Below, in pieces: positions 1,300-41,483 of a DNA stretch of 64,000 nt. Source of the stretch: Candidatus Omnitrophota bacterium (lineage in GTDB: Bacteria; Omnitrophota; Gorgyraeia; Gygaellales; Profunditerraquicolaceae); contig QZKA01000027.1 in NCBI GenBank assembly GCA_003598135.1, positions 20,788 through 84,787 on the forward strand. Reading direction: 5' to 3'. Positions within the stretch are counted from its first letter, which is position 1, and every line of letters starts with the position of its first letter. The position numbers and the translations under genes were made by a program. A model generated the notes under the pieces. That model did not search any database. It was not told where the DNA came from and was given only the letters and a program-made list of their open reading frames with translations.

Positions 1300-2610
1300 A
1301 TGGAGAATTTTGTCAGACAGTTCAGGGACAAGGTTAAGAAGAAACAGCTTAAAATCGGGGTAGTGGGCTTAGGGTATGTGGGCCTACCATTGGCTATAGA
1401 GTTTGCAAAGAAGGGGTTTTCAGTAACCGGCATAGAAGTCGATACAGACAGGCTCTCTAGCCTTAAGAAAAAAATATCGTATATTACCGATGTCAGCACC
1501 GTCGAATTACGCTGTGTCGTTGACTCTGGCGCTTTAACCGCTACTTGTGATTTCGGTGTCCTCAAGAAGATAGACGTAGTAATTATTTGCGTGCCGACCC
1601 CTTTAAAGAAAAAATACCTTCCTGACATCTCCTATATCAAGACCGCAGTCAGGGCTATAGCCGGGCATTTAAAAAAGAAGGCCCTGGTTATTCTAGAGAG
1701 CACCACTTATCCAGGCACTACCGAAGAAGTGATACGCCCATTATTTGAGGCGCGGGATTTAAGGCACGGCAGGGATTTTTATCTCTGTTTTTCTCCTGAA
1801 AGAATAGACCCTGGCAATACGGTGTTTCCGGTGCATAAAATCACCAAGGTGGTAGGCGGCATAGATAAGACCGATGCGTACCTCGCAGGATTAGTGTACG
1901 GCACCATTATTGAAAAAGTCGAATTGGTTTCTTCGGTCAGGGTAGCTGAATTCGCCAAATTACTTGAGAATACCTTTCGGCTCGTCAATATAGGCCTTAT
2001 CGATGAGATAGCCATGATGTGCCATAAGATGGACGTTAAGGTCTGGGAAGTAATCAAGGCAGCCAAAACCAAGCCTTTTGGCTTTATGCCTTTTTATCCC
2101 GGGCCGGGTGTAGGCGGCCATTGTATTCCTAAGGACCCGCTGTACCTTTACTGGAAGGCAAAAAAATTCGGTTTCAGCTCGCGTTTCATAAGACTCGCTT
2201 CTGATATCATTTCCTATATGCCGGCATATGTTACCTCAAGAGTCGCAGACTTATTGCGCAAAAAAAACAAGTCTCTTCAGAAAGCAAAGATTTTGGTAGT
2301 TGGCGTGACATACAAGAAAGATATAAAGGACCTCAGGAAATCGCCCGCGCTTGATATAATCGGGATATTGCAGGAGAAGAGATGCGCAGTTTCGTATTAC
2401 GATCCGTTAATTCCCTATTTGAAATTTAACGATATCGACCTTATTTCAATTAAACTTACTCCTTCGGCCATTAAGCGTTTTGATTGCGTAATCATTGCGA
2501 CTGACCATTCCCGCCTAGATTATGCAATGATTGCAGGGAACGCAAAGCTTGTGTTTGATACCAGGAACGTGTACAACAACCTTAGCGCAAAGAATATTTT
2601 TTTGTTATAA
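1300..2610 (+). CDS. Nucleotide-sugar 6-dehydrogenase of the UDP-ManNAc/UDP-GlcNAc dehydrogenase family (WecC/WbpA/Cap5O-like)
   Basis: N-terminal Rossmann motif IGVVGLGYVGLPLA and catalytic GGHCIPKDP motif. Length 436 aa is typical of the UDP-glucose/GDP-mannose dehydrogenase superfamily. Confidence 0.8.
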   Translation: MENFVRQFRDKVKKKQLKIGVVGLGYVGLPLAIEFAKKGFSVTGIEVDTDRLSSLKKKISYITDVSTVELRCVVDSGALTATCDFGVLKKIDVVIICVPTPLKKKYLPDISYIKTAVRAIAGHLKKKALVILESTTYPGTTEEVIRPLFEARDLRHGRDFYLCFSPERIDPGNTVFPVHKITKVVGGIDKTDAYLAGLVYGTIIEKVELVSSVRVAEFAKLLENTFRLVNIGLIDEIAMMCHKMDVKVWEVIKAAKTKPFGFMPFYPGPGVGGHCIPKDPLYLYWKAKKFGFSSRFIRLASDIISYMPAYVTSRVADLLRKKNKSLQKAKILVVGVTYKKDIKDLRKSPALDIIGILQEKRCAVSYYDPLIPYLKFNDIDLISIKLTPSAIKRFDCVIIATDHSRLDYAMIAGNAKLVFDTRNVYNNLSAKNIFLL

Positions 2611-2623
2611 TAAAGGCACGGAT

Positions 2624-3031
2624 ATGCAAAAGCGCTCATTTACGCTCGTTGAAGTAATGCTGGTAGTTACGATAATCGCCGCATTAGTTGCAATTGCCAT
2701 CCCGCAGCTTTTACGCATGCGCATAAACGCAAATGATGCAGCTGCGCAGACTACCCTCAGGACAATCGCAATTGCCTGCGAAGATTATGCCTCGGCAAAC
2801 CACGGTAACTATCCTTCTGAGTTCGGCGCCCTTCTTAATTCTACTCCTGCATACCTCAATGAAAACTACACCTCCCGAAGCAGGCAGGGTTATAATTTCA
2901 ATTGCAGTGCGCAGATGAACATGGTGGGATATAATTGTAGCGCAACGCCTGTTGCATGTAATATGACCGGTGCAAAAATTTTCACGATTACTACGGGAAG
3001 CGTATTGACCAATACCGATTGTGCGCCGTAG
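2624..3031 (+). CDS. Type IV pilin-like protein, paralog 1 (class III signal peptide; S at the -1 position)
   Basis: MQKRS-FTLVEVMLVVTIIAALVAIAIP is a prepilin cleavage/methylation N-terminus with E at +5. The track ORF at 2531 begins inside the upstream gene, and the ATG at 2624 fits the pilin N-terminus. The conserved C-terminal block PAYLNENYT..RQGYNF.C...YNC.ATP..CN.TG..F.ITTG is shared with paralogs 2-4. Confidence 0.7.
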   Translation: MQKRSFTLVEVMLVVTIIAALVAIAIPQLLRMRINANDAAAQTTLRTIAIACEDYASANHGNYPSEFGALLNSTPAYLNENYTSRSRQGYNFNCSAQMNMVGYNCSATPVACNMTGAKIFTITTGSVLTNTDCAP

Positions 3032-3049
3032 CTACTAAAGGAGTAAGGC

Positions 3050-3466
3050 ATGAAAAAAGGCCTAACACTGATAGAGGTATTTGTGACAACGGTTATTATT
3101 GTGATATTGTTTTCAATCGCAGTGCCCCGCCTGCAGCGCATGCGGATTAACAGTAACGAGGCTGCTGCCAGGGTTATTGTCCAGAAAATATCCGTTGCTG
3201 CTGAGACATACGCGTTTGCGCATAATGGAGTGTATGCGAGCAATATAATAAATCTCACTTCTTCTACTCCAAGATATCTTGAGGAAAATTATTCCGCCAA
3301 ACCCCAGCACGGTTACAATTTTGTTTACTCGTCACCAGATATTCAGGGTACGGGTTATTCGGCGACCGGTATCCCTGTATCCTGTAACAGAACCGGGACC
3401 AGGGTTTTTGTGGTTACTACGAATAATACGACGCGTGCAGCATTAAGTGTCTCAGGCTGCATTTGA
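3050..3466 (+). CDS. Type IV pilin-like protein, paralog 2
   Basis: MKKG-LTLIEVFV prepilin N-terminus; RBS AAGGAG lies 8 nt upstream. Shares the C-terminal ENYS..QHGYNF...CNRTG..F.VTT block with the other paralogs. Confidence 0.75.
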   Translation: MKKGLTLIEVFVTTVIIVILFSIAVPRLQRMRINSNEAAARVIVQKISVAAETYAFAHNGVYASNIINLTSSTPRYLEENYSAKPQHGYNFVYSSPDIQGTGYSATGIPVSCNRTGTRVFVVTTNNTTRAALSVSGCI

Positions 3467-3476
3467 CCCGCCTGTC

Positions 3477-3505
3477 TTGACAAACCCAGATATGCGTGGT
3501 ATACT
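3477..3505 (+). promoter_or_regulatory. Candidate sigma70 promoter, 11 nt downstream of the pilin-2 stop codon
   Basis: TTGACA (3477-3482), 17-nt spacer, TATACT (3500-3505). A consensus -35 with a near-consensus -10 at optimal spacing. Confidence 0.4.
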
Positions 3506-3511
3506 TTTAAT

Positions 3512-3756
3512 TGACAATTTGGTGTAACTGAAAAAGGCAAACCATTCGTAAGAATGGGACGGGTCTTTACCCGGCTTAGCGTATGTCTTTATCTATAAAG
3601 CGTAAGCCGCAAAACTAAAGGGCCCCTGAGCCGAAAATGAAGCAAGGCTCTTGAGGGTAGCCAGTTGCCAGTTAAAAGAACTCGAACCTATTCTTTCCCT
3701 TCTTAAAAGAAGGGGGGCAGTATTTTGCCTGAGTGGAGAATAGGTTTTTTATTTTT
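3512..3756 (+). ncRNA. Candidate small non-coding RNA of about 240 nt, running from the promoter at 3477-3505 to the terminator at 3687-3756; family not recognised
   Basis: The longest + strand ORF in the unit is 14 codons and has no RBS. The unit is bounded by a consensus promoter and a nested-stem intrinsic terminator, and the next gene carries its own promoter. Confidence 0.25.
3687..3756 (+). terminator. Rho-independent terminator (nested hairpins followed by a U-tract)
   Basis: Outer stem CCTATTCT (3687-3694) pairs with AGAATAGG (3737-3744). It encloses the inner hairpin CCCTTCTT-AA-AAGAAGGG (3697-3714) and is followed by TTTTTTATTTTT (3745-3756). Confidence 0.5.
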
Positions 3757-3769
3757 AGAGAAATTTTGC

Positions 3770-3798
3770 TTGACAAGAACGAAAGGAGGTGATATAAA
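3770..3798 (+). promoter_or_regulatory. Sigma70 promoter of the candidate major pilin gene
   Basis: TTGACA (3770-3775), 17-nt spacer, TATAAA (3793-3798). The predicted 5' UTR to the ATG at 3947 is about 140 nt, with GGGGG/GGAAAG RBS-like sequence ahead of the start. Confidence 0.5.
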
Positions 3799-3946
3799 GT
3801 TATAAATCAGGGGACTGGCAGGAAATCTTATTCTTTGGAACTCAATGAACAGCAATAAGTTATAATTTAGCTAGTATAAAACTAGTCATAAAGAATAAGA
3901 GAGTAATGCCCTAGTCAATCATACCTAGAAAGGGGGTATTGGAAAG

Positions 3947-4366
3947 ATGAAGAAAGGTTTTACGCTCGTAGAAATCATGATTGTTGTAGCCATTATCGCA
4001 TTGTTAGCAGCAATCGCCATACCTAACCTGTTGCGTGCAAGAGTAAATGCCAATGAATCCACCGCACAGGCTACGCTTAAGACGATTGCAACCGCAGCTG
4101 AATCTTTTGCTTCGGCGAACGCCGGCGCATACCCAAGCAACATGTCGGCTATGTTGACCGCTAATCCTGCGTATCTAAACGAAAACTATACCAATGGTAC
4201 GAGGCAGGGATATAATTTCACCTGTACCTTTACTGCAACTTCGTATGTATGCAACGCGACTCCTGCTACCATTAACCAGACAGGTACCAGGTCGTTCGCC
4301 ATTTGCACGGGTGCGGTTATGAATACGTCGGCAGTTGGTAGTGCTACAGCTCCTGCGTGTCCGTAG
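3947..4366 (+). CDS. Type IV pilin, paralog 3; candidate major pilin
   Basis: Canonical MKKG-FTLVEIMIVVAIIALLAAIAIP prepilin N-terminus. It is the only paralog flanked by both a consensus promoter and a strong terminator. It has four Cys and eight N-x-S/T sequons in 139 aa. Confidence 0.8.
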   Translation: MKKGFTLVEIMIVVAIIALLAAIAIPNLLRARVNANESTAQATLKTIATAAESFASANAGAYPSNMSAMLTANPAYLNENYTNGTRQGYNFTCTFTATSYVCNATPATINQTGTRSFAICTGAVMNTSAVGSATAPACP

Positions 4367-4393
4367 TTTTTTATACCACAGCCTGAGGATTTT

Positions 4394-4434
4394 CCCCGTA
4401 CCTACTTTTTAGTAGGTACGGGGCTTTAATTTTA
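4394..4434 (+). terminator. Strong rho-independent terminator downstream of pilin paralog 3
   Basis: CCCCGTACCTACT / AGTAGGTACGGGG forms a perfect 13-bp GC-rich stem around a TTTT loop, followed by CTTTAATTTT. Confidence 0.65.
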
Positions 4435-4562
4435 TGCGGGCAGCTAAAAGTATACCCGTTCTTTTTAATATCTAAATTTTCCTTTAGCAATAAATAAAAT
4501 AGAATACTATTGTATTCAGAAATATTTATGATAAAATAGTTTTATTCTTAAGGAGTGCGTGT

Positions 4563-4982
4563 ATGTATCGTGACAACAAAGGATTAAGCCTTATCGCCGT
4601 AATGATCAGCATCGCGGCGGTATCCTTGCTTTTAAGAATCGCAATAGGCCAGATCATTAAGATTAATATTGCGCAGAATGAAGCTGATGCTTCTAATACT
4701 ATGAAACTGATTTCAGCTGCGCTTGAAAATTATGCCAAGAATTACAAGGATGCATACCCTTCGAACCTGTCCGTCCTTATTGAAACAACGCCGCCGTACC
4801 TTGAAAAAGATTTTACCAGTTTTGAATCGATAAAGGGATACGAATACAATTGTGACAGGCTTGATCCTTTGGGTTATAACTGTCTGGCATCTCCTGTGAA
4901 ATGCATGCTCAGCGGAGAAAAAAGCTTTACCATCATTACAGGAGGAATTATTTCTTCGGAAGATTGCCGCAGGAGAGAGTAA
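4563..4982 (+). CDS. Divergent type IV pilin-like protein, paralog 4 (degenerate N-terminus)
   Basis: N-terminus NKG-LSLIAVMISIAAVSLLL lacks Glu at +5. The paralog C-terminal block is kept: YPSN...PPYLEKD..GYEYNC...GYNC.ASPVKC..SGEKSF.IITGG. RBS AAGGAG present; a possible TTGTAT-16-TAAAAT promoter lies upstream. Confidence 0.55.
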   Translation: MYRDNKGLSLIAVMISIAAVSLLLRIAIGQIIKINIAQNEADASNTMKLISAALENYAKNYKDAYPSNLSVLIETTPPYLEKDFTSFESIKGYEYNCDRLDPLGYNCLASPVKCMLSGEKSFTIITGGIISSEDCRRRE

Positions 4983-4983
4983 G

Positions 4984-5379
4984 ATGAAGCCTAGGGGTTT
5001 TACTCTGGCAGAGCTTCTTCTGGCAGCTGCGATTTTGGCGTTTGCGTTGACTAGCTTGCTTGTTCTTTTTGTAAATTGCCTGTTTCTGAATGAAAATAAC
5101 CGTAACTCAAGTATTGCCGTTGGCCATGCACAGTATGTGCTTGAGGATATCAAGAATACAGCGTTTGAGTTGATGAGCTCAAGGATTCAGAACGGTACCT
5201 GGAGTTGGAGCAGTACGGTGATAGAGTCTCGGGGCCTTACGCCCTTGAGGAATGAACTTATCACTACTTCCTGTTCAGGAACAGACCCTTTGGACGTACG
5301 GGTGAGGGTGTTCTGGCAGAGCAAGGGCCAGACCGCAGGGACGAAAAACGTTACCGTAGAAACCTTATTTAGCAGATAA
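4984..5379 (+). CDS. Minor pseudopilin with a prepilin-type N-terminal cleavage/methylation domain
   Basis: MKPRG-FTLAELLLAAAILAFALTSLLVLF matches the class III signal. The 2-nt gap to the upstream gene suggests co-translation. Confidence 0.6.
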   Translation: MKPRGFTLAELLLAAAILAFALTSLLVLFVNCLFLNENNRNSSIAVGHAQYVLEDIKNTAFELMSSRIQNGTWSWSSTVIESRGLTPLRNELITTSCSGTDPLDVRVRVFWQSKGQTAGTKNVTVETLFSR

Positions 5380-5383
5380 TGCC

Positions 5384-5923
5384 ATGAACGGTTTTACGCT
5401 GATTGAATTGCTCTTGGTGGCGGTGCTTTTTGTGTTTCTCATTAGCGGGATCTTTTTGGTGTTGGATGTAGGAGAGAAAACCTGGAATTATGATTTGGGA
5501 ATCCTGGATTTGCAGCAGTATGCCCGTAATGCGATGGACGGAATGGTGAGGGAGCTAAGACAGGCGCGCTCCAACAATATCACTATTACGAATATTACCT
5601 TAAATAGTACCAGAATCGATTTTAAAATGCCTTATAATGCCACCAATACCACGGTGAGTTATTTCTTAAACGGTACTCAGATTATAAGGGAGCAGCCAAC
5701 TGGATCGAATTGCGTCTCTGTGTGGGATGGGAACCGCTGCAGGATTCTCGCCCAGAACATTACGGTTCTTAATTTCGGACGTTCTGGCAATGTGGTGGAT
5801 GTACAATTGAGGGCGGAAAAGTCCGCAAGGGGAAGATGGCTGTATTACCCTTTAAAAAATAATCCTGCCAACGTAACCGAAGTGAGATTTTTGAAAGAAC
5901 GGGTAAGGTTAAGAAATGAATAA
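5384..5923 (+). CDS. Minor pseudopilin (PilW/GspJ-like)
   Basis: MNG-FTLIELLLVAVLFVFLISGIFL prepilin N-terminus. The protein is extremely rich in N-x-T sequons: NIT, NIT, NST, NAT, NTT, NGT, NIT, NVT. Confidence 0.6.
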   Translation: MNGFTLIELLLVAVLFVFLISGIFLVLDVGEKTWNYDLGILDLQQYARNAMDGMVRELRQARSNNITITNITLNSTRIDFKMPYNATNTTVSYFLNGTQIIREQPTGSNCVSVWDGNRCRILAQNITVLNFGRSGNVVDVQLRAEKSARGRWLYYPLKNNPANVTEVRFLKERVRLRNE

Positions 5924-7007
5924 GAAGGGCATTGCCTTGATTCTCATTTTTTCCACGATCGTGGTATTGACTGCGATAGGCGCGGCAATAGTGTTGCGCA
6001 GTGTAGCAGAGCGTGCCTATGTGCAGCAATATATGGAGTCAACCCAGGCATTCTGGCTTGCTGAAGCAGGCATCAACAGGGCTAAAAAAGAATTACGCAG
6101 TACGTATAGCGCAACAGGAACCGATATCTGGCAGGGTAATTTAACTTCAGTGCCCGGCGGCTACAATGTAAGTGTAGCGGATGTCTCTATTGACGGAAAA
6201 CCATGCAAAAACGTTACTGCATACGGGTATGTCCCCACAACTGCTCCTTACAGGGCGCGACGCGCCATTCAGGTCATTATCAAGAAACAAATTCCTGGCG
6301 GGTTTTATGATAATGCCATCTATACTGCAGGAGATTTGGATATCAATGGCGATTCATATAGCGTGACAGGGAACATCCTTTATGCCGGAGATTATGAAGT
6401 TGAGCATGATAATATCAGCGGAACCGCAACTCAGGATACCAGCATCAGCCCTTTGGCTAGGTTCGATTTTACACAACTAAAAGTCTTGAGTGAGGCGCAA
6501 GGGAATTTTTATGATATCACCCGGATTACCCGCGTGGAACATAAACAGGAAACCTTTCCTTCAACCTTCTGGTACACGCGCGCAGACGATGGTGTTGACA
6601 ATGATGGCGATGGTACTATTGATGAGGTAGATGAGTGGGTGCCGAATATCCTGTATCTCGAAGGAGATTTGACGCTTAATGGTAACATCGGGACAATCGG
6701 TGGCTTTTTTGTGGTAGTCGGCGATGTGATTACTGATCCTGATGATACAGAGGATATGACCATTAACGGCAATGGTACGATAGACGGGGTGATTTATACA
6801 AGGGGCGAGTTCAGGATAAACGGCGGCGGCGGGAATCTAAACGTAAACGGCGGAATATGGTCCGGTATTGAGGCAAGGATTAATGGTAATGCCAATATTG
6901 CCTATAACCAGGCATACATGGATTCTATTGAAGGGCTCAATATTGAGCCCGATATCCAGATAACAAACTGGAAGGAAAGCATAAATCCTTATAAAATGTA
7001 TCTTTAA
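5916..7007 (+). CDS. PilX/GspK-like minor pilin (pilus-tip adhesin or priming-subunit candidate)
   Basis: Has an N-terminal hydrophobic helix followed by YVQQY..TQAFWLAEAGI, which is the PilX_N-type motif. A 363-aa secreted domain rich in G, N and D follows. Confidence 0.5.
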   Translation: MNKKGIALILIFSTIVVLTAIGAAIVLRSVAERAYVQQYMESTQAFWLAEAGINRAKKELRSTYSATGTDIWQGNLTSVPGGYNVSVADVSIDGKPCKNVTAYGYVPTTAPYRARRAIQVIIKKQIPGGFYDNAIYTAGDLDINGDSYSVTGNILYAGDYEVEHDNISGTATQDTSISPLARFDFTQLKVLSEAQGNFYDITRITRVEHKQETFPSTFWYTRADDGVDNDGDGTIDEVDEWVPNILYLEGDLTLNGNIGTIGGFFVVVGDVITDPDDTEDMTINGNGTIDGVIYTRGEFRINGGGGNLNVNGGIWSGIEARINGNANIAYNQAYMDSIEGLNIEPDIQITNWKESINPYKMYL

Positions 7008-7017
7008 AGGCAATCCG

Positions 7018-8052
7018 ATGAAATTACCTATAGATATTTTCGTAAAAAAGGGCCCACAAGCGAAAGCCAGGGTTACTTTAGGTTTGGACGTAGGTTCAAA
7101 TTCCATAAAGTTCGTAAAGTTATTGCAAGATAAGGATGCGTTCCAGCTTGTATCGTATGCCTTAGAAGAGAAGCAGCTTGATCTGGAAGAGGTATTCAAG
7201 AAAATAATCGATCCCAAAGACTTAAAAAGGCCGGTTACTATTTCTGTATCGGGTGCTCCTACCATCATGAGGTACGTGTCGTTTCCCAAAATGAACCAGC
7301 AGGAATTAAAGCAGGCCCTTAAATTCGAGGCACAAAAGCACATTCCTTTTTCAATCGCCGAGGTCAACCTTGACAGCTGCATTTTGAAACAAGACCTGCC
7401 TGATAACAAGATGCTGGTTTTGGTAGCTGCGGTTAAGAAAGAACCGCTGGAACAGAAGCTCAGGGTTTTTAAGGAACTGAACCTCCTGATACATTTTATT
7501 GATATCGATGCCCTTGCGTTGATAAATGCGTTTACCTTTAATTATGCAGATACCGATGTCCTTAAAGGGAAGGCAGTAGCGTTGCTTAATATCGGGGCGC
7601 TTGAAAGCAACCTCGATATCCTTGAAGACGGCGTTCCCCGTCTTAGCCGGGATATACACATAGGGGGTAACCATTTTACCCAGAAGCTTGCCGATATCTT
7701 TGGCGCCGACCAGAAAGCAGCGGAAAAAATGAAGCTGTCCCCTGATAAGGAAAAAACCGAACAGATCAATGCTGCGGCTGAAAACGTACTCGTGCATCTT
7801 GCCAAGGAGTTGCGCAGCTCTTTTGATTATTATGAAAGCCAGAGCGTTTCTTCGGTAAGCAAGATTTTCCTAAGCGGAGGCTCGAGTCTGTATATGAGCC
7901 TCGGTTCTATCCTTACCACAATGCTGGGAGTTCCCGTTGAAAGATGGGATCCGTTTAGGCGGATTATTCTACCGGATTCCGCTGATATGTCGCAGCTTAA
8001 GTCAGTAGCAGGCCAATTCGCGGTAGCAGTAGGCCTGGCATTGAGGACTTAA
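7018..8052 (+). CDS. pilM: Type IV pilus assembly protein PilM (actin-like ATPase fold)
   Basis: LGLDVGSNSIKFVKL is the characteristic PilM N-terminal motif. The protein is 344 aa and sits immediately upstream of pilN. Confidence 0.8.
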   Translation: MKLPIDIFVKKGPQAKARVTLGLDVGSNSIKFVKLLQDKDAFQLVSYALEEKQLDLEEVFKKIIDPKDLKRPVTISVSGAPTIMRYVSFPKMNQQELKQALKFEAQKHIPFSIAEVNLDSCILKQDLPDNKMLVLVAAVKKEPLEQKLRVFKELNLLIHFIDIDALALINAFTFNYADTDVLKGKAVALLNIGALESNLDILEDGVPRLSRDIHIGGNHFTQKLADIFGADQKAAEKMKLSPDKEKTEQINAAAENVLVHLAKELRSSFDYYESQSVSSVSKIFLSGGSSLYMSLGSILTTMLGVPVERWDPFRRIILPDSADMSQLKSVAGQFAVAVGLALRT

Positions 8053-8060
8053 TAATCCCT

Positions 8061-8636
8061 ATGATAGAAATTAACCTTTTACCAGAAGAACTGAAGGCGA
8101 AGGCGAGAAAAATCCAGGCAAGCGAAAAATTCCAATATATCGTTTACGGGATTCTTGCGGTGTGTGTGCTTTTCATTGTCTTGCATGTTTTCTTTGGTGT
8201 AATAGCAATCGCAAAGGGCGTGCGTCTGAATTCTCTTAAGGCCCAAGGCAAAAAATTACAGCCGCAACTGAAGGCCTTGGAAGATTTCAGGAAAGAGAAC
8301 AAAGAGCTCTCAGCCGAAGAGAAGGGTATGCAGGATTTAGTTGCCAAGAGAATAAACTGGGCCGAAAAACTAAATTTCTTAAGCCGTGACCTTATCATGG
8401 GGACCTGGTTTAGGGAGTTATCCGTAACCCCTAAGGAATTAATTATAAAAGGAGCCGCGGTGTCTTTAGAGAAAGAAGAGCTGAGGCTTCTTGATAAGTT
8501 TATAGAGAACCTTAAGAAAGACGAACGTTTCTTTAAGGACTTTACCGCAATAGAATTGAAATCCGTAACGCGAGCACTGATCGGCAACTATGAAGTGGTT
8601 GATTTTACGCTGGTAGTGCCTGCGAGAGAAAGATGA
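8061..8636 (+). CDS. pilN: Type IV pilus assembly protein PilN
   Basis: Hallmark N-terminal INLLP motif (MIEINLLPEEL) followed by a single TM helix. Confidence 0.8.
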   Translation: MIEINLLPEELKAKARKIQASEKFQYIVYGILAVCVLFIVLHVFFGVIAIAKGVRLNSLKAQGKKLQPQLKALEDFRKENKELSAEEKGMQDLVAKRINWAEKLNFLSRDLIMGTWFRELSVTPKELIIKGAAVSLEKEELRLLDKFIENLKKDERFFKDFTAIELKSVTRALIGNYEVVDFTLVVPARER

Positions 8637-9181
8637 TGAATCTACCCGAATTAGACATAAAGAAAATAGCGGTTATTGTGCTTTTTTCTTTTGCGGTCCT
8701 CTATACGGACGCGGCTTTTTTGTTTAAGAAACAATTCAGTTCGTTGCGCGCAACCGGCAAGAAGATCGAGCAGTTGCAAAAAGCCATAAGCACCGTGAGT
8801 AAAGAGCTTGAAAAAATGAACGAAGAGAAGGCAAGGGCAAAGAAGGAAAACCAGGGCGGAGGCAAAACACTCATTTCCGAAGAGCAGATACCATCACTTT
8901 TGCATATCATCTCAAATTTTGCCAACGACAACAAAGTAAAAATCATGCAGATGAGGCCGGTAAAGGACACGGCGGTTCAAAGCCCTGGCCCGGGAACGCA
9001 GATTGCGCTCTCCATCATTATGGATGTATCTTGTTCGTATCACAATTTTGGGAAATTCATTAACGATCTGGAAAATGCTGGTCAATTTATGGCAATCCAA
9101 GAGATGCGGATTATGAACCGGCCGGATACAGATTTAGAGCAGAGTATATACCTAATACTGAAGACCTATGTCAAAAAATAA
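8633..9181 (+). CDS. pilO: Type IV pilus assembly protein PilO
   Basis: Sits between pilN and pilP with an overlapping stop/start. It has one N-terminal TM helix followed by a coiled-coil, at 182 aa. Confidence 0.6.
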   Translation: MMNLPELDIKKIAVIVLFSFAVLYTDAAFLFKKQFSSLRATGKKIEQLQKAISTVSKELEKMNEEKARAKKENQGGGKTLISEEQIPSLLHIISNFANDNKVKIMQMRPVKDTAVQSPGPGTQIALSIIMDVSCSYHNFGKFINDLENAGQFMAIQEMRIMNRPDTDLEQSIYLILKTYVKK

Positions 9182-9578
9182 CATTTTTGTCTTTATGCTT
9201 GCCTTAGGTTTGTATTCTTGCGTGAACTGTTTTGCGCAAAACGAGACCGTTTCTGTGCCGGCAGTCGTGCCTACGCAGGAAAACGCTGCAGAAAATAAAT
9301 TTGTCTACGATGCCCAAGGAAAACGTAATCCCTTCATTGCGCTGGTTACTTCTGACGGGCGTTTGCTTAAGATTTCCGACGAACAACAATCCGGCGGCTT
9401 GACGTTGGAAGGTATTATCTACGACGAGCAGGGGATATCGTTTGCGATGGTGAATGGCTCTGTGGTAAAGGTCGGCGATACAATAAGTGGTTATCAGGTG
9501 CTTAAAATAGAATCAAGCCGAGTTATCTTTATTAAGGACGGGGAGCCTTTTATGGCAGAATTAAAGAAGGAGGAATAA
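9168..9578 (+). CDS. pilP: PilP-like lipoprotein
   Basis: Has a signal peptide and a Cys (LGLYSC). It is a small beta-rich protein immediately upstream of the secretin, with an overlapping start. Confidence 0.5.
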   Translation: MSKNNIFVFMLALGLYSCVNCFAQNETVSVPAVVPTQENAAENKFVYDAQGKRNPFIALVTSDGRLLKISDEQQSGGLTLEGIIYDEQGISFAMVNGSVVKVGDTISGYQVLKIESSRVIFIKDGEPFMAELKKEE

Positions 9579-11182
9579 TGAAGCCTATTGTGAGGGTGAG
9601 GACAAGAATATTGCTAATTCTTTTCGGTTTAATGATAACTTTTGTTGTGCGCAGTTCTCTCGTTGCTCAAGAATCCAATGCTACATCTGTGCAGGGCAAG
9701 GATAATGAAACTGCTGTGCAGGAGCAGGCGGAGGCAGGAGAGGTTTTTGGGAATACTGCTGAATCTCCAAGCGAAATGTCGCTTAAGGCCAATGGGTCAG
9801 CGGCACAGAAAAACGTGACACTTGATTTTAAAGATGCCGATATCCGCAACGTCCTGAAAATTATTTCTTATAAGGCAGGCGTCAATATCGTGGTAACCCC
9901 GGATGTGGTCGGTAACGTGAATATGCGCCTGGTGGATGTCCCGTGGCAGAATGCACTGGATACCATTGTAAAGACCTATGGGTTCGGGTATGAATGGCTT
10001 AACGACCGCGTGATTATGGTCTCTACGCTTGCGCGGCTTGCAGAACAGAGGAAGTCGCAAGAAGAGGCGATGGAGAAAGAGCCGCTTGATACAGACACCT
10101 TCGTTTTGAACTTTTCTTCAGCCATAGATATCAAAAATGTCCTGGACAAGCTGCTTTCCGCAAGGGGAAAGATTACGGTAGAGAGCAGGACTAATACCCT
10201 GATTGTGACTGATACCAAGTCTACGCTATTGAAAATCAAAGAGGCAATCCAGCGGCTTGACAAAATGACTCCCCAGGTTATGATTGAGGCAAGGATTATT
10301 GAGACAACGCTTGGAAGTTCTGAAAAATTAGGCATTGATTGGAACCTCAGGGTTGCGTTAAGCGGTCCAAAAAGGCCGACTACCTGGCCTTTTACAGGAG
10401 AAATAAAGGGAGCAGGGTCAAAATATTTTCCCAAAACTACGGTTCCGACTTCCCTTGTGAGGGAAGCAACTACGACGTATAGCGAAACAGGGGCCGTGGT
10501 CGGTACGAGTTATTCCGAAAATACCTACCATAGCCTTGTGGCTGGTTTTCCGGATGTACCTACGGGCCTTTTTACCTTCGGTACTCTTGACATGACAGGA
10601 TTACAAGCCGTACTTGAAGTTTTAAAATCAAGCTCTGATACAAAGATAATTTCTAACCCCCGGATTACTACCTTGAATAATCAGGAGGCAAAGATCTTGG
10701 TGGGTAAGGTCGTGCCGATTCCCAAATACGAATACAGCAAAGAGACGGGAGCCTTGAGCATATCAGGCTATGAAGATAAAGAAGTCGGAGTAAAGCTTAT
10801 TGTAACGCCCAATATCAATGAGCAGGAGTATGTTACCTTGAGTGTTAAGCCAAGCGTTGAGGCTATCATTGGTTCAACCGGACCCAACGGAGAAAGGCCC
10901 GTGATTTCAACCCGAAGCGCTGAAACAAATGTTATGATAAAAAATGGGCAGACTCTCGTGATAGGGGGCTTGATTTCGGAAGATAAAATAAAGTCAAAGA
11001 ATGGAATCCCTATTTTGGGCAGCCTGCCGCTTTTAAAGTACCTATTCGGCAGGAAAGAGGACACTATTACCAAAACAGAGATGCTTATTTTTATTACTCC
11101 GCACATCATAAGAGAAAAGAAGCCTTTGCTTGAAAAAGCCGGCTCAGAAGGAATACCGGCGGTATCTCCTACTGGTGCATAG
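9578..11182 (+). CDS. pilQ: Type IV pilus secretin PilQ
   Basis: Secretin C-domain: NPRITTLNNQEAKI...TLVIGGLISED....GIPILGSLPLLKYLFG....EMLIFITPHII. An N-terminal signal peptide is present. Confidence 0.85.
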   Translation: MKPIVRVRTRILLILFGLMITFVVRSSLVAQESNATSVQGKDNETAVQEQAEAGEVFGNTAESPSEMSLKANGSAAQKNVTLDFKDADIRNVLKIISYKAGVNIVVTPDVVGNVNMRLVDVPWQNALDTIVKTYGFGYEWLNDRVIMVSTLARLAEQRKSQEEAMEKEPLDTDTFVLNFSSAIDIKNVLDKLLSARGKITVESRTNTLIVTDTKSTLLKIKEAIQRLDKMTPQVMIEARIIETTLGSSEKLGIDWNLRVALSGPKRPTTWPFTGEIKGAGSKYFPKTTVPTSLVREATTTYSETGAVVGTSYSENTYHSLVAGFPDVPTGLFTFGTLDMTGLQAVLEVLKSSSDTKIISNPRITTLNNQEAKILVGKVVPIPKYEYSKETGALSISGYEDKEVGVKLIVTPNINEQEYVTLSVKPSVEAIIGSTGPNGERPVISTRSAETNVMIKNGQTLVIGGLISEDKIKSKNGIPILGSLPLLKYLFGRKEDTITKTEMLIFITPHIIREKKPLLEKAGSEGIPAVSPTGA

Positions 11183-31228: not shown

Positions 31229-32482
31229 ATGTTTTCACTTGGCAAATTCTTTAAGGGCGGTGACGGGTTTGGCCGCAACGTGCTTGTGGTGTTCTTCGGT
31301 ACTTCCCTGCTCAGTATCTTTAATCTTCTTTATCAGCTCCTTATAGCGCACCGGCTCAGCCCTGTGGATTTCGCCGTATTTAATTCTTTATTATCCCTGT
31401 TTCTCATATTCTCCGCTCCTTTGCTTACCCTGCAGGCTGTAACTGCAAAGTTTGCCGCTGAATTTGCCGCACGCAGCGAGGTCAATAAAATCAAAACCTT
31501 ATTTTCCGGGCTTCTTTTAAAGAGCGTGCTTTTCTCCCTTGGGACTTTTTTTGTCTTTCTTGTATGTGCTCCCCGCATTGCCTCAAGTTTAAAAATACCC
31601 TCTTATGGGCCGGTGTATATGCTTATGTGGTTGGTTGCGTTTGCATGGATTCTGCCCGTATTATTGGGCGGCCTCCAGGGGCTAAAAAAATTTAACTGGT
31701 TCGTATTTTCTTCGATAAGCGGCGGAGGGCTGAAACTGGTTTTGGCATTTGTATTCATTAGTTTTGGCTTCGGCATAAGCGGGGCGCTCGGCGGATATCT
31801 GGTCGCTACTATCGTTACTATCCTTATTGCAATGGTTGCGCTGCGGTCTTTTATCGTTGGGAAGGAGCAATGGGTTTATGTACATTTTAAGGAAATTTAC
31901 AGATATTTCTTCCCCCTCATTATCAGTAACCTCTGTTTTACGGGGCTGGTGAATAGCGATATGGTGTTGGTAAAATACTATTTTAGCCCTGAGAAGGCAG
32001 GCCTTTATTCCCTATCTCAAATGGTCGGAAAGATTTTTTTATTCCTTCCGATGGCTATCAGCGTAGTCATGTTTCCCCATGCCAGTTCCTTAAACGCCAA
32101 GGCGCAAGATGCCCGCCCCGTTCTGAATAAGTCGCTTTTATATGCCACGACCTTATGCGTCGCTGCAATCCTTTTTTATAACCTTTTCCCGGAGCGGACG
32201 CTTATTTTACTTACAGGCAAGATTTACCCGGAGTCGATTTTTGTTGGAAGGCTTTTCAGTGTTTCCATGACCGGCTTTGCATTATCTTTTCTGTTAATGA
32301 ATTATTTTCTCTCCGTTAAGGACCTGCGTTTTATCAAATTCATTTTTATAATTGCGGGTATACAGCTATTGTCGATTTTGATTATTCATCGCAGCCTCGC
32401 AGAGGTCCAGTATATTCTCTGCGTGAGCGCGCTTGTACTTTTTTCATCGTTATTCATATTATCCAGGAAGAGTTCGGCATGA
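31229..32482 (+). CDS. wzx: Wzx-like oligosaccharide/polysaccharide flippase (MOP superfamily)
   Basis: A 417-aa protein with about 12 TM helices and the polysaccharide-biosynthesis-protein topology. Confidence 0.7.
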   Translation: MFSLGKFFKGGDGFGRNVLVVFFGTSLLSIFNLLYQLLIAHRLSPVDFAVFNSLLSLFLIFSAPLLTLQAVTAKFAAEFAARSEVNKIKTLFSGLLLKSVLFSLGTFFVFLVCAPRIASSLKIPSYGPVYMLMWLVAFAWILPVLLGGLQGLKKFNWFVFSSISGGGLKLVLAFVFISFGFGISGALGGYLVATIVTILIAMVALRSFIVGKEQWVYVHFKEIYRYFFPLIISNLCFTGLVNSDMVLVKYYFSPEKAGLYSLSQMVGKIFLFLPMAISVVMFPHASSLNAKAQDARPVLNKSLLYATTLCVAAILFYNLFPERTLILLTGKIYPESIFVGRLFSVSMTGFALSFLLMNYFLSVKDLRFIKFIFIIAGIQLLSILIIHRSLAEVQYILCVSALVLFSSLFILSRKSSA

Positions 32483-38661: not shown

Positions 38662-39969
38662 ATGCCTGAACAGCCGGTTGTATTAATTAATCCCCCAAGC
38701 CCTTTTTTGATTAACCAAAAAAGCTTTTCTCCGCTTGGCATACTCTATCTTGCCGCCGAATTGGAAAAAAATAACCTACCCGTGCGGGTTGTCGATTTGG
38801 CGGACTCAGAGAATGATATGGAGGCGGCCTTACGTTCGTATTTGGATGCCGAGCTATTTGGTATCAGCGCAACAACCCCGCAATATCCTTATGCAAGAGC
38901 GATAAAGGATGCGATCAAGAGAGCGCACCCTGAGGCGAAAGTAGTATTGGGTGGCGTTCATGGAACAGACCTCACTGAAAAGTGTCTTAATGACGGGTTT
39001 GATATCGTGGTTAAGGGAGAAGGTGAGAAGGCAATAGTTAAGATCGTGCACGATTTCGCAACGCATTCCCTTGATTACAGGACTTTGCAATTGCCTTATG
39101 AAAAAGATATGGATTCTTTGCCTCTTCCTGCGCGGCACCTGATTCCCCTGAAGGAGTACGGTTATGATATTGATGGTGTACCTGGGGCAAGCGTTATTAC
39201 CAGCAGGGGCTGTCCGTATCATTGCGTTTTTTGTTCAAAAGGCGTCTGGGAACAGGGGGTAAGGCTTCATAGCGTTGAGTACGTCGTAAGGGAGCTGGTC
39301 TCAATCATACAAAACTATACGATTAGCCATTTTCTTTTCCTTGATGATGCCATTAATATTGATAGAAACAGGTTGGTGCGGTTATGCACTGCGATAAAAC
39401 CGCTTGGAATAAAATGGCGTTGCTATGCGCGGGCGGATTTTCACGCCAAGGGTATGCTTATTGCGATGAAGGAAGCAGGTTGCGTGGAGATAGGTGTGGG
39501 CATTGAGAGCGGTTCGCAGAAGATATTAGACATCGTAGGCAAAGGGAGCACTGTGGAAAAGAATACCAGTTTTGTTAAAGAATGCAAATCTGTTGGCGTG
39601 GCGGTGAATGCCTTTGTGATGATTGGGCTACCCGGTGAGACGCATGAAACGGTCGAAGCCACAAAAAAATGGATAGGAGATGCAATGCCGGATAAGTTTG
39701 GTTTTAATATTTTTATGCCTTATGCTGGCACTCCGGTCTGGCGCAACCTAGAAAAATATGATTTGTGTATCGCAGATATTCCCGAGGAACATAGCTGGGT
39801 AAAGGGCAGGCCAGGCCAGCACCATTGTTATGTCTCGACAAACGAGTTGAGCTCTAGTGAAATCTTAAGGTTGTTCAACGAGTTGTTTGATTATTACACA
39901 CAATTGTTACATTGGAGGCCCGGAGTAGGCAGGGTAAAGCAGACTGTCCCGGGTAACACAGTATGCTGA
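38662..39969 (+). CDS. Cobalamin-binding (class B) radical SAM protein, copy 2
   Basis: N-terminal B12-binding domain (VVLINPPSP...PLGILYLAAEL) and a canonical cluster motif, RGCPYHCVFCSK. Confidence 0.85.
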   Translation: MPEQPVVLINPPSPFLINQKSFSPLGILYLAAELEKNNLPVRVVDLADSENDMEAALRSYLDAELFGISATTPQYPYARAIKDAIKRAHPEAKVVLGGVHGTDLTEKCLNDGFDIVVKGEGEKAIVKIVHDFATHSLDYRTLQLPYEKDMDSLPLPARHLIPLKEYGYDIDGVPGASVITSRGCPYHCVFCSKGVWEQGVRLHSVEYVVRELVSIIQNYTISHFLFLDDAINIDRNRLVRLCTAIKPLGIKWRCYARADFHAKGMLIAMKEAGCVEIGVGIESGSQKILDIVGKGSTVEKNTSFVKECKSVGVAVNAFVMIGLPGETHETVEATKKWIGDAMPDKFGFNIFMPYAGTPVWRNLEKYDLCIADIPEEHSWVKGRPGQHHCYVSTNELSSSEILRLFNELFDYYTQLLHWRPGVGRVKQTVPGNTVC

Positions 39970-41483
39970 TAGGCGCGTTGTTGTTTTTTGTGGGGTATCT
40001 GTTTCAGTGCTGGCCGCGGTTTTTTAACCCTTATTTCGGGGTGGATGTATGGAGGAATCTTTCTATCGCCGATGAAATCAGAAAGTATAAGCGGCTGCCC
40101 AGGCGCAATCTTCCCAAATATATGTTAAAGGGGCCGTTTGACTATCCGCCGCTGCTCAATATATTTCTGTCGCTTTTTTCTAAAAAGTGGCTAGAAAAAT
40201 ACCAGGGTTTTATCGCGCCTCTTTTTGATGCAATCACCGGATTTATCCTTTTTTCATTCACCCTTTTCCTTACGAGAGAAGTCGCAGTTGCGCTCCTGGC
40301 GCAGCTTCTTTTTGTTACTAATCCCCTTGCAGCTATGGAAAACGCAAGCCTTACTGCGAGAAGCCTGGGTAATTTGACTTTTTCATTGACATTCCTTTTT
40401 ATTATTCTTTTCACCGTATTCCATTCATGGGCCTATTTTCTGTTGGCAATCATTTTTGGATTTTTGGTGATTTTTGCCCAGAAAATGGCATCCCAGGCCT
40501 TGATTATGATATCCGTTATCTTTATGCTCTTCAGAATGGATGTTTCCTATGTTCTTATCGTTTCTCTAAGTATACTGGTTGCACTCTTATTGGCAGGCGA
40601 TTTGTATGTCCGGATCGCCAGTGGACATCTTTCTGTGCTTAGATACTTTAGAAAGATTCTTGATAATCGCTATGCGCATCAGGTATCAGGCAATATTGCA
40701 TTAAAAGGCGGGAATGATTTCATCGATAAAGTTAAGTCTTATGTGAATAAACAACCGTTTTTGGCAATGCTGGCCAGTGCTCCTCTTGTCACCATGGGGT
40801 TGGTGCTGTCCTTGTGGGGACTAATTTTTATACCGAAGAGTTTTTCGATACCCCCCGAGCTTTATCTTTACCATATATTGTTTCAATTTTGTCTATGGCT
40901 AATAGTACTGTATTACTTTGGGATTCTTACCGCGCAAGTGCGCGCTATACAATTTTTAGGCGAGGGCATGAAATACTTGGTCTTTGCAAGTTTCCCTGCT
41001 TCTTTTATCGTGGCATACGTGTCGTTTTATGAAATCCGGTTAAACGCTAATTTCATTCCTTTAGTGTTTAGTTTGGTTGTTGTCGCAATGAGCGTAGCCC
41101 AAACGGTTTTCCTTCAGAAGAAAGGGATCGTCAACGACCGGCAGCGCACCCTTACCCCGGTTTTGCGGCAAGTTATGGATTTTTTACAGAATGAGCCTGG
41201 CGAAATCCGTCTGGCGACTATACCTTTTTCGCTCTCGGATATCATTGCCTATTTTACAAAGTGTAATGTTTTTTCATCCGATTCGGCGTTTGTCTTGGGC
41301 AATGATCCTGCGTATACTGACTTTTATCCGGTGTTAAAGAGGCCGCTTGAAGAAATCCTAAGCGTCCACAATATCAATTATTTGCTGATAGATAAGAACT
41401 ATGTGAACCCTGAGGCTTTGCAACTTGCGGCGGGCTCAAAGATTGTCCTTGAGAGAGAGAACCTGTGTCTGATAAAACGCTAA
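39963..41483 (+). CDS. Polytopic membrane protein (about 12 TM helices plus a C-terminal soluble domain of about 110 aa); possible GT-C-fold glycosyltransferase or polymerase/ligase-like protein
   Basis: The first extracytoplasmic loop reads GVDVWRNLSIADEIRKYKR, a DE..R(Y/K) motif reminiscent of the ArnT/PMT loop-1 DE(x)RY. There is no WWDYG motif. Topology only; no confident family assignment. Confidence 0.4.
   Translation: MLIGALLFFVGYLFQCWPRFFNPYFGVDVWRNLSIADEIRKYKRLPRRNLPKYMLKGPFDYPPLLNIFLSLFSKKWLEKYQGFIAPLFDAITGFILFSFTLFLTREVAVALLAQLLFVTNPLAAMENASLTARSLGNLTFSLTFLFIILFTVFHSWAYFLLAIIFGFLVIFAQKMASQALIMISVIFMLFRMDVSYVLIVSLSILVALLLAGDLYVRIASGHLSVLRYFRKILDNRYAHQVSGNIALKGGNDFIDKVKSYVNKQPFLAMLASAPLVTMGLVLSLWGLIFIPKSFSIPPELYLYHILFQFCLWLIVLYYFGILTAQVRAIQFLGEGMKYLVFASFPASFIVAYVSFYEIRLNANFIPLVFSLVVVAMSVAQTVFLQKKGIVNDRQRTLTPVLRQVMDFLQNEPGEIRLATIPFSLSDIIAYFTKCNVFSSDSAFVLGNDPAYTDFYPVLKRPLEEILSVHNINYLLIDKNYVNPEALQLAAGSKIVLERENLCLIKR

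Follow-up and report, generated by a model that had tools for sequence, protein, structure and literature searches.

Do the N-x-S/T sequons that crowd the pilus subunits of an uncultivated bacterium mark N-glycosylated pili, and if so, which enzyme would attach the glycan? The window analysed here, a 64 kb stretch of Candidatus Omnitrophota DNA with 63 proteins, carries a run of seven pilus subunit genes and, at 23.6-64 kb, a glycan block whose sugar-nucleotide genes start at 23607. Sequons were scored as N-x-S/T, where x is any residue other than P.

By its class III signal pilins and its assembly genes, the locus is a type IV pilus operon (Table 1). The N-termini of the subunits fit the prepilin cleavage/methylation pattern (G|F/L-T-L-x-E, then a hydrophobic helix), the paralog at 4563 being without Glu5. 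PF07963 matches the products at 2624, 3947, 4984 and 5384 with E values from 1e-7 to 4e-3, the one at 5384 falling under the Pfam cut-off, and all seven subunits have NCBIfam matches of the pilin, GspG, ComGC, GspH or GspK type, all far under the cut-offs. PilM (PF11104), PilO (PF04350) and the secretin (PF00263) follow downstream. The leader of the pilin 3 gene is long and conserved, and the gene is followed by a strong terminator of its own (4394-4423).

Table 1. Features of the window, with sequon counts, expectations from each protein's own composition and shuffle p values
Feature	Position	Strand	Length (aa)	Sequons	Expected	p	Remarks
Nucleotide-sugar dehydrogenase	1300..2610	+					Best match UDP-ManNAc dehydrogenase type; directly upstream of pilins
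Pilin 1	2624..3031	+	135	5	2.1	0.04	Class III signal; GFTLVE-type N-terminus; PF07963
Pilin 2	3050..3466	+	138	5	1.9	0.02	Sole -2 E (EENYS)
Pilin 3	3947..4366	+	139	8	2.5	0.001	Probable major pilin
Pilin-like paralog	4563..4982	+		1			Without Glu5; unenriched, internal negative control
Minor pilin, GspI/XpsI-like	4984..5379	+		3		n.s.
PilW/GspH-like minor pilin	5384..5923	+	179	8	2.1	0.0005	All sequons N-x-T
PilX/GspK-like minor pilin	5916..7007	+		5	3.4	0.25 (n.s.)
PilM, PilN-like, PilO, PilP-like, PilQ secretin	7018..11182	+					Assembly machinery; none sequon-enriched
Wzx-type flippase	31229..32482	+					12 TM; PF01943; near head of glycosyltransferase part of glycan block
GT-C_A-fold membrane protein, unannotated family	39963..41483	+	506				Nearest folds AglB/STT3; no WWD motif

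Pooled, the seven subunits hold 35 sequons where 15.1 are expected (z 5.85; 0 of 5000 composition-preserving shuffles). The whole of this excess is N-x-T (25 against 8.7, z 6.1), which stands at about two to four times chance level in the pilus proteins, while N-x-S is not enriched. Four of the seven genes, those of pilins 1, 2 and 3 and of the PilW-like protein, are enriched individually; their head domains contain 26 sequons against 9.2 expected (z 6.5), and no N-P-S/T. For pilin 3 our recount returned exactly the triplets listed in the initial annotation, and its counts for the PilW-like protein and for pilins 1 and 2 were likewise reproduced; the PilX-like protein, credited there with about six, has five, and the chance level, put there at about 1 per 140 aa, comes to 1.9-2.5 per protein when each enriched pilin's own composition is used. 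The window background is 0.47 sequons per 100 aa; the 56 non-pilus proteins are at expectation (92 against 84.4, z 0.9), and no enrichment was found among the other envelope proteins LptD and PilN/O/P/Q (12 against 10.4).

Might the pattern reflect nothing more than a Thr/Asn bias, as had been suggested as an alternative? Asn does make up 7-11% of the pilins, where the other window proteins have 2-7% (mostly about 4%). The excess is, however, specific to orientation, spacing and Thr, and is therefore not a compositional bias. Across the seven subunits the mirror pattern S/T-x-N is at chance (16 against 15.1, z 0.3), the spacing controls N-S/T (10 against 15.5) and N-x-x-S/T (12 against 15.5) fall below expectation, and neither S/T-x-S/T nor Q/D-x-S/T is significant; the full set shows a mild rise of N-x-N (14 against 7.6, z 2.6) that is not seen in the enriched subset. 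Together with the composition-preserving shuffles, the mirror and spacing controls (z 5.8 against 0.3) exclude plain composition and beta-strand periodicity.

How widespread is the excess? As far as the sequences compared here go, it is lineage-specific. Syntenic operons at about 50% identity are not enriched, nor are most of the 119 pilin homologs (median 2 sequons), and across these 119 there is no coupling between Asn and a Ser or Thr at +2 (MH odds ratio 0.79). The Thr at +2 predates the Asn: D-I-T or NEDYT stands in homologs where this lineage has N-I-T or NENYT. In the sister species the sequon count of each protein is the same with some sites moved, and the PilW-like protein keeps 8 of its 8; losses between the two species run at the neutral rate (5 against 6.3), with turnover statistics that are marginal. 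The same N-x-T-only signal is found in the minor pilins of a lineage that is not related (L021), and also in pilins that lie outside the operon (L023). The missing coupling, the neutral-rate losses and the unenriched state of other periplasm-exposed proteins are observations that weigh against N-glycosylation.

On balance N-glycosylated pili seem to us the best reading of the sequon excess, and we hold this reading with about even confidence. The pilin head domains would be N-glycosylated at the sequons while they face the periplasm, either ahead of pilus assembly or in the course of it. As the initial annotation pointed out, the sequons lack the D/E at -2 of Campylobacter-type PglB acceptors, the one exception among the 35 being that in pilin 2, and the enzyme would be an oligosaccharyltransferase (OST) without an acidic -2 requirement, either eukaryote- or archaeon-like or resembling the relaxed PglBs of Desulfovibrio. 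As donor one would expect a lipid-linked glycan, brought to the periplasmic face by a Wzx-type flippase such as that of the glycan block. Selection might then act on glycan density, as a coat on the fibre, and not on fixed positions.

Which gene might encode such an enzyme? The search for STT3, PglB, AglB or GT41 homologs proposed earlier gave, at the scope of the window, no Pfam-detectable match: among the 63 proteins there is no Pfam or NCBIfam STT3, no GT41 (HMW1C/NGT) domain and no Wzy_C (PF04932) O-OTase. A WWDxG-like motif is absent from all six frames, and the window also lacks an initiating phosphoglycosyl transferase. No canonical OST is present there, and no N-glycosylating enzyme is identifiable with confidence. 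The dehydrogenase upstream of the pilins had been taken as a hint of glycosylation; the gene is real, yet its adjacency is conserved synteny, shared with a locus (L010) whose pilins have no sequon excess, and it therefore provides no evidence for glycosylation.

The GT-C-like protein at 39963 deserves closer consideration. It has the GT-C_A membrane fold with a C-terminal periplasmic alpha/beta domain, and archaeal AglB, the nearest, and STT3 give the best matches both at full length and for the C-terminal domain; Pmt4 and ALG12 score nearly as high as AglB, and DPY19, AftD and AftA domains only slightly lower than AglB/STT3. The protein has no Pfam or NCBIfam match, and neither phmmer nor the family profile found an OST among PDB sequences. 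Its family comprises about 1,800 clusters at 50% identity, with named members from Omnitrophota and Patescibacteria; 2 of 40 divergent members match PMT_2 weakly, below threshold, and 0 of 40 match STT3. Among 52 homologs of the protein, none came from the sister MAG, which is fragmentary. OSTs share a catalytic set of an Asp in external loop 1, a D-x-D/E, a Glu in EL5 and a pyrophosphate-binding Arg. In the 39963 family D28, W30 and R395 are invariant and D89, E126 and E334 (in G-E-G) are conserved in at least 90% of sequences, positions read from the family alignment; the PglB residues to which they might correspond are D56, D154/D156, E319 and R375. After the last helix the alignment has I-I-x-D-x-x-R-S-x-T and no Trp pair. 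The earlier proposal of a GT-C glycosylation gene stands as regards the fold and its nearest neighbours, and falters on the missing WWD motif, the lack of STT3 homology and the occurrence of the family in polysaccharide loci only. The 39963 protein is the only candidate periplasmic protein glycosyltransferase in the window and is more probably a glycan-assembly enzyme; that it is the pilin transferase we consider doubtful, and a gene elsewhere in the genome is at least as likely to supply that activity. The most ambitious version, in which this family of about 500 aa would be a minimal AglB-like OST, its WWD pocket replaced, that N-glycosylates type IV pilins at N-x-T, is a long shot.

One might think, then, that the glycan block is unrelated to the pilins, and that it is an LPS/O-antigen-like or surface-polysaccharide locus in which the 39963 protein adds or polymerises sugars from polyprenyl-linked donors. 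We find this rather probable. At five loci (L002, L004, L006, L024 and L025) the GT-C homolog is always surrounded by sugar-nucleotide enzymes, GT2/GT4 and radical-SAM genes, and no pilin occurs within 10 kb of it; at L024 the homolog is flanked by two further GT-C genes, and L002 also has a GT9 heptosyltransferase-type gene. Gene couplings are kept across loci, a B12-radical-SAM gene upstream of the GT-C in four and a DUF362-ferredoxin gene downstream in three (the window, L002 and L025). The neighbours of the homologs have no comparable sequon excess, the best z, 3.5, being that of one GT-C homolog itself, and the WWD motif is lacking. The fold, with AglB and STT3 as best matches and not like Wzy or WaaL, points the other way, as does the absence from the block of recognisable Wzy, WaaL or Wzz, which leaves room for an en-bloc transferase role. 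The occurrence of the family in Patescibacteria, which are not known to have LPS, likewise speaks against this reading. An unrelated block is compatible with N-glycosylation of the pilins by an enzyme encoded elsewhere.

Could the glycans be O-linked instead, placed on Thr or Ser by a GT-C enzyme or an O-OTase, with N-x-T as recognition context or by-product? All bacterial pilin glycosylation in the literature searched is O-linked (PilO/TfpO, PglL, PglS, cyanobacterial Ogt), PMT_2 is the sole Pfam link of the 39963 family, and at one other locus (L011) the major pilin is immediately followed by a polytopic TPR membrane protein. Several small GT2s of the block have polyprenyl-phosphate sugar synthases as best matches, and such sugars are donors for GT-C enzymes other than OSTs. 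We nonetheless think O-glycosylation unlikely. The excess demands Asn exactly two residues before Thr, with no positional excess of S/T-x-S/T, D/Q-x-S/T or S/T content; O-transferases normally take Ser, whereas N-x-S is unenriched; and the window holds no Wzy_C-type enzyme. O-glycosylation motifs in which Asn stands at -2 are not known.

Selection on structure or surface chemistry in the head domain, for example conservative D/N exchange on exposed Thr-bearing strands in N-rich lineages, might produce N-x-T with no glycosylation at all. The older +2 Thr, the uncoupled wider family, the neutral-rate losses and the Asn-rich pilins favour such a course. Against it stand the shuffle, mirror and spacing controls, the preservation of the count despite site turnover and the appearance of the same signal in L021 and L023, and we judge it improbable. 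That a cytoplasmic HMW1C/NGT-type (GT41) enzyme adds hexoses before export, an option raised in the initial annotation, is very improbable, for although NGT enzymes likewise recognise N-x-S/T with no need for an acid at -2, the window has no GT41 domain and type IV prepilins are inserted in the membrane co-translationally, which leaves the head domain little cytoplasmic exposure.

In the literature searched, accounts of N-glycosylated type IV pili concern archaea, and bacterial pilins are described as O-glycosylated only. If the pili discussed here are N-glycosylated, the modification extends to a new phylum, Omnitrophota, and to a new class of substrate. In bacteria, N-glycosylation is otherwise known almost only from Campylobacterota and Desulfobacterota. 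Omnitrophota are ultrasmall bacteria that may live as predators or depend on a host, and pili are thought central to their lifestyle. A further implication of N-glycosylated pili would be an OST whose sequon specificity is minimal and eukaryote-like, of interest for glycoengineering, and the pilin N-x-T z-score would become a simple signature for finding such systems in metagenomes. Were the 39963 protein the enzyme, the first case of an N-glycosylated type IV pilus in bacteria would come with a new N-OST lineage outside STT3/AglB/PglB. Independently of these possibilities, the analysis assigns a fold to a large unannotated GT-C family and shows its genomic setting to be consistent.

Among known systems, the O-glycosylated pilins (PilO/TfpO, PglL, PglS and TfpW, the last itself a GT-C) resemble the present case in being pilin-specific and lineage-variable, with glycans drawn from surface-polysaccharide pathways. 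They differ in using Ser/Thr, often at one or a few sites, with the transferase usually beside the pilin gene; the window pilins have Asn-x-Thr at 5-8 sites and no transferase in the operon. The PglBs of Campylobacter and the relaxed ones of Desulfovibrio provide bacterial periplasmic N-glycosylation from undecaprenyl-PP-glycan, with the OST inside the glycan-assembly locus, and the Desulfovibrio enzymes accept a minimal N-x-T (PMC4894442). Unlike C. jejuni PglB acceptors, 34 of the 35 pilus sequons are without D/E at -2, and no PglB homolog was detected in the window. We know of no type IV pilins that are PglB substrates. Compared with the short archaeal OSTs of GT-C_A, AfAglB-S1 and AfAglB-S2, the 39963 protein is about 90 aa shorter and has no WWDYG, no recognisable DK/MI motif and no detectable sequence homology. 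Archaea differ from the present bacterium in that the window has a PilMNOPQ secretin-type machine and yielded no AglB/STT3 sequence homolog or WWD motif. The archaeal type IV pilins and archaellins modified by AglB are nevertheless much like the pilins described here, with class III signal peptides, heads dense in N-x-S/T and no acid at -2; there the glycan is moved from its lipid carrier outside the membrane by AglB, and it is an archaeal AglB that comes structurally closest to the GT-C protein of the window.

The sequon (N-x-S/T, x not P) enrichment that the initial annotation reported for the pilus subunits is real, as the pooled motif counts make plain. Its counts of 5, 5 and 8 for pilins 1, 2 and 3 were confirmed, as were the 8 sequons of the PilW-like protein, every one of them N-x-T; the PilX-like protein has 5 rather than about 6. 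Its chance expectation was too low, the own-composition value being 1.9-2.5 sequons per protein, and the excess still passes every control. Could composition account for the signal? Shuffling, whether protein by protein or pooled, rules out chance and composition, as do the mirror (S/T-x-N) and spacing controls. S/T-x-S/T, Q-x-S/T, D-x-S/T and N-x-A/G show no notable deviation in the seven subunits, and N-x-N, slightly up in the full set (14 vs 7.6, z 2.6), is not up in the enriched subset of pilins 1-3 and the PilW-like protein. Because mirror, spacing and substitute-residue motifs are unremarkable, N/T richness and beta-strand i/i+2 periodicity are excluded. Sequons are as expected in the other 56 window proteins (92 vs 84.4), and likewise in LptD and PilN/O/P/Q, which also belong to the envelope (12 vs 10.4). 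The Campylobacter-type acidic residue at -2, which had been noted as missing, occurs in just 1 of the 35 sequons.

Motif counts in the seven pilus subunits, pooled
Motif	Observed	Expected	Outcome
N-x-S/T	35	15.1	z 5.85, reached in 0/5000 shuffles
N-x-T	25	8.7	z 6.1
N-x-S	10	6.4	n.s.
S/T-x-N (mirror)	16	15.1	n.s.
N-S/T	10	15.5	under expectation
N-x-x-S/T	12	15.5	under expectation
S/T-x-x-N	4	15.5	under expectation

How widely is the signal shared? A family-wide trait is ruled out, the 119 pilin homologs (60-79% identical) carrying 2 sequons at the median and 7 at most. Among these homologs a column-wise test finds Asn and Ser/Thr at +2 uncoupled (Mantel-Haenszel OR 0.79), and N and T are even anti-correlated at the site NE[N/D]Y[T/I/L]. 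PilM scans for further operons gave 6 loci in genomes and 7 in metagenomes. The sister species (L008, MAG GCA_028717045.1; PilM 89% identical) has the same operon, with sequon counts of 5, 6, 8, 1, 3, 8 and 5; four more distant syntenic operons (L010, L011, L015, L018; ~50% PilM identity) lack the excess, with 0 sequons in their major pilins. The sister MAG's orphan pilin (P0015, beside rpoN) and second minor-pilin cluster (L023) together have 19 N-x-T vs 7.5 expected (z 4.8). That orphan pilin, with 5 N-x-T and a mirror count of 1, also adjoins a sigma-54-dependent two-component system, and the cluster, with 3, 5 and 6 N-x-T, lies beside a B12-radical-SAM gene. An unrelated lineage (L021), reached via the PilW-like protein at 41% identity, also shows enrichment: each of two minor pilins carries 7 sequons vs 2.2 expected, and pooled N-x-T is 21 vs 7.2 (z 5.4). 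Since enrichment is found both in the window/L008 lineage and in L021, the signal arose more than once, limited to pilus subunits.

The fourth pilin paralog (4563-4982) lacks the usual Glu5 at its N-terminus (GLSLIAV...) and has no Pfam N_methyl match. It is conserved, with orthologs in L008, L010, L011, L015 and L021, and has few sequons even within the enriched lineage.

Between the window and L008, per-protein sequon counts are kept while sites shift, 5 having been lost and 6 gained. The gains lie above a substitution null (6 vs 2.6 expected, P 0.04), the losses are indistinguishable from neutral (5 vs 6.3 expected), and overall retention (36 vs 31-33) is marginal, at P 0.05-0.07. All 8 sites of the PilW-like protein are conserved, vs 20 substitutions elsewhere in it, and the cytoplasmic nucleotide-sugar dehydrogenase beside the pilins has had both its sequons lost. 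In more distant homologs the corresponding sites read D-I-T or NEDYT, so the Thr came first, and a D-to-N change makes the sequon. Small as the numbers are, this pattern fits selection on the number of sites.

Features of the window (strand where reported) and of the sister lineage
Feature	Position	Strand	Remark
LptD	75-1286	+
Nucleotide-sugar dehydrogenase	1300-2610	+	between LptD and pilins
Four pilin paralogs	starts 2624, 3050, 3947, 4563	+
Near-consensus sigma-70 promoter	3477-3505		upstream of pilin 3
Riboswitch-like element	3527-3612		upstream of pilin 3, after promoter
Hairpins	3683-3745		upstream of pilin 3
Terminator	4394-4423		after pilin 3
Minor pilin, GspI-like	start 4984	+
Minor pilin, PilW/GspH-like	start 5384	+
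Minor pilin, PilX/GspK-like	start 5916	+
PilM, PilN-like, PilO, PilP-like, PilQ secretin	7018-11182	+
Housekeeping genes	11.2-23.6 kb	+	between pilus operon and glycan block
Glycan block	23.6 kb to window end	+
Wzx-type flippase	start 31229	+	in glycan block
506-aa membrane protein, GT-C (C4540_05465)	39963-41483	+	in glycan block
Orphan pilin and second minor-pilin cluster	L022 8752-9141; L023 722-1111, 7684-10361		GCA_028717045.1 and JGI 3300029288

What enzyme might act on the pilins? No canonical oligosaccharyltransferase (OST) was found within the window: Pfam and NCBIfam detect no STT3 in it, and a six-frame scan shows no WWDxG motif. An initiating phosphoglycosyl transferase is likewise absent from it. 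The initial annotation also argued from genomic adjacency, and here it was not borne out. The dehydrogenase beside the pilins is ruled out as evidence of glycosylation by identical synteny in L010, which lacks the sequon excess, and homologs of the window's GT-C protein in five other loci lie inside glycan clusters, never near pilins.

That this 506-aa protein is a GT-C is correct. It has no family annotation in Pfam or NCBIfam and no PDB sequence match, and a sequence link to OSTs was searched for and none found. The family is uniform (~500 aa), with 52 word-index matches and 1,798 representative clusters in an exhaustive profile search, and its few organism-named members come from Omnitrophota and Patescibacteria. 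Modelled alone, the C-terminal domain best matches AfAglB-S2 (9.8), AglB-L (8.0) and STT3B (8.0), followed by DPY19 (7.8), AftD (7.4) and AftA (7.2); the model thus places OSTs as nearest neighbours, by a small margin inside a shared superfamily fold. D28 and W30 (loop 1) and R395 are invariant, and D89, E126 and G-E334-G occur in at least 90% of sequences; these residues would fit a putative GT-C active site. Against an OST role count the family's sole faint Pfam link, to PMT_2, and the small GT2s of the block, whose best matches are polyprenyl-phosphate sugar synthases, under their cut-offs. In L024 the homolog is flanked by PMT_2 and YfhO/PTPS-like GT-C genes, and neighbours of the homologs have no sequon excess comparable to the pilins'. 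The sister MAG is fragmentary, and the 52 homologs include no close NCBI-sourced ortholog from it. Weighing the OST-like fold against the PMT_2 link, the GT2s, the glycan-locus context and neighbours without a comparable sequon excess, we think it unlikely that this GT-C glycosylates the pilins, and rather probable that it acts on a surface glycan.

The window belongs to a MAG of Candidatus Omnitrophota, and its pilin 3 is 100% identical to an NCBI/JGI protein encoded on a 159-kb contig. All 63 genes of the window lie on the + strand, and over 1-64000 cumulative GC skew climbs monotonically through the full 64 kb (63/63 genes co-directional). The glycan block holds sugar-nucleotide enzymes, six GT2, one GT4, an AsnB-like amidotransferase and, over ~30 kb (34186-63196), nine radical-SAM enzymes, of which five bind B12 and four are of the SPASM type. 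A B12-radical-SAM gene lies directly upstream of the GT-C gene in L002, L024, L025 and the window, where a DUF362-ferredoxin gene start overlaps the end of the GT-C gene; L002 and L025 share this conserved trio. The nine radical-SAM enzymes and this trio imply unusual sugar chemistry, possibly C-methylation. The B12-radical-SAM gene at 34186-35697 in the window has a 989-aa ortholog in L002 (3827-6796), where Pfam matches to intein/LAGLIDADG families (PF14890, PF14528) are weak to faint; the ortholog is followed by an 87-aa PQ-loop (SemiSWEET-like) gene that the window lacks. Two block proteins have no Pfam family: a 360-aa soluble protein (35621-36703) with a repeated W-x-hydrophobic pattern, and a 509-aa protein (56265-57794) whose C-terminal part weakly matches a VimE-type UDP-diacetamido-glucuronate deacetylase (NCBIfam E 4e-15, under cut-off). 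Elsewhere, L011 encodes, directly after its sequon-free major pilin, a 655-aa polytopic membrane protein (4826-6793) with C-terminal TPR repeats, all that Pfam detects, and an N-terminal loop 'FQNPFLWDDE'; it resembles TMTC/PMT-type GT-C O-glycosyltransferases.

Pilin 3 is preceded by a 480-nt gap (3467-3946; folding z -3.3). Over its full length the riboswitch-like element there matches the c-di-GMP-I clan (RF03167), but at 29.5 bits it stays under the gathering threshold of 59 (E 5e-5, 521 nt searched). It contains the core AAAGGCAAACC...GGGACG and is kept in L008 with identical score. Because a promoter and this conserved sub-threshold match precede it, pilin 3, richest in sequons, may be under c-di-GMP control.

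What, then, is the cause of the signal? We put about an even chance on the best single explanation, that pilus subunits would be N-glycosylated in the window's lineage, because the sole biochemical reader of Asn-x-Thr with such orientation, spacing and Thr preference known to us is an N-glycosylation enzyme. The glycosylated pili first proposed are partly supported: the sequon signal and the GT-C stand, the adjacency arguments fall, and no transferase was identified in the window. O-glycosylation of the pilins, in an unusual sequence context, seems unlikely; Pfam and NCBIfam find no Wzy_C O-oligosaccharyltransferase in the window. A structural, non-glycan cause of the N-x-T excess is a little less likely still. 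Modification by a cytoplasmic NGT is very improbable, the same searches finding no GT41 in the window. If the subunits are N-glycosylated, the glycans likely form a dense coat, with selection on site number and not position. No paper in the literature searched ties Omnitrophota to STT3, AglB or N-glycosylation. Two known systems also favor N-glycosylation: some bacterial OSTs accept a minimal N-x-T (PMC4894442), and AglB N-glycosylates archaeal type IV pilins; if the same holds here, this would be a bacterium with N-glycosylated type IV pili.
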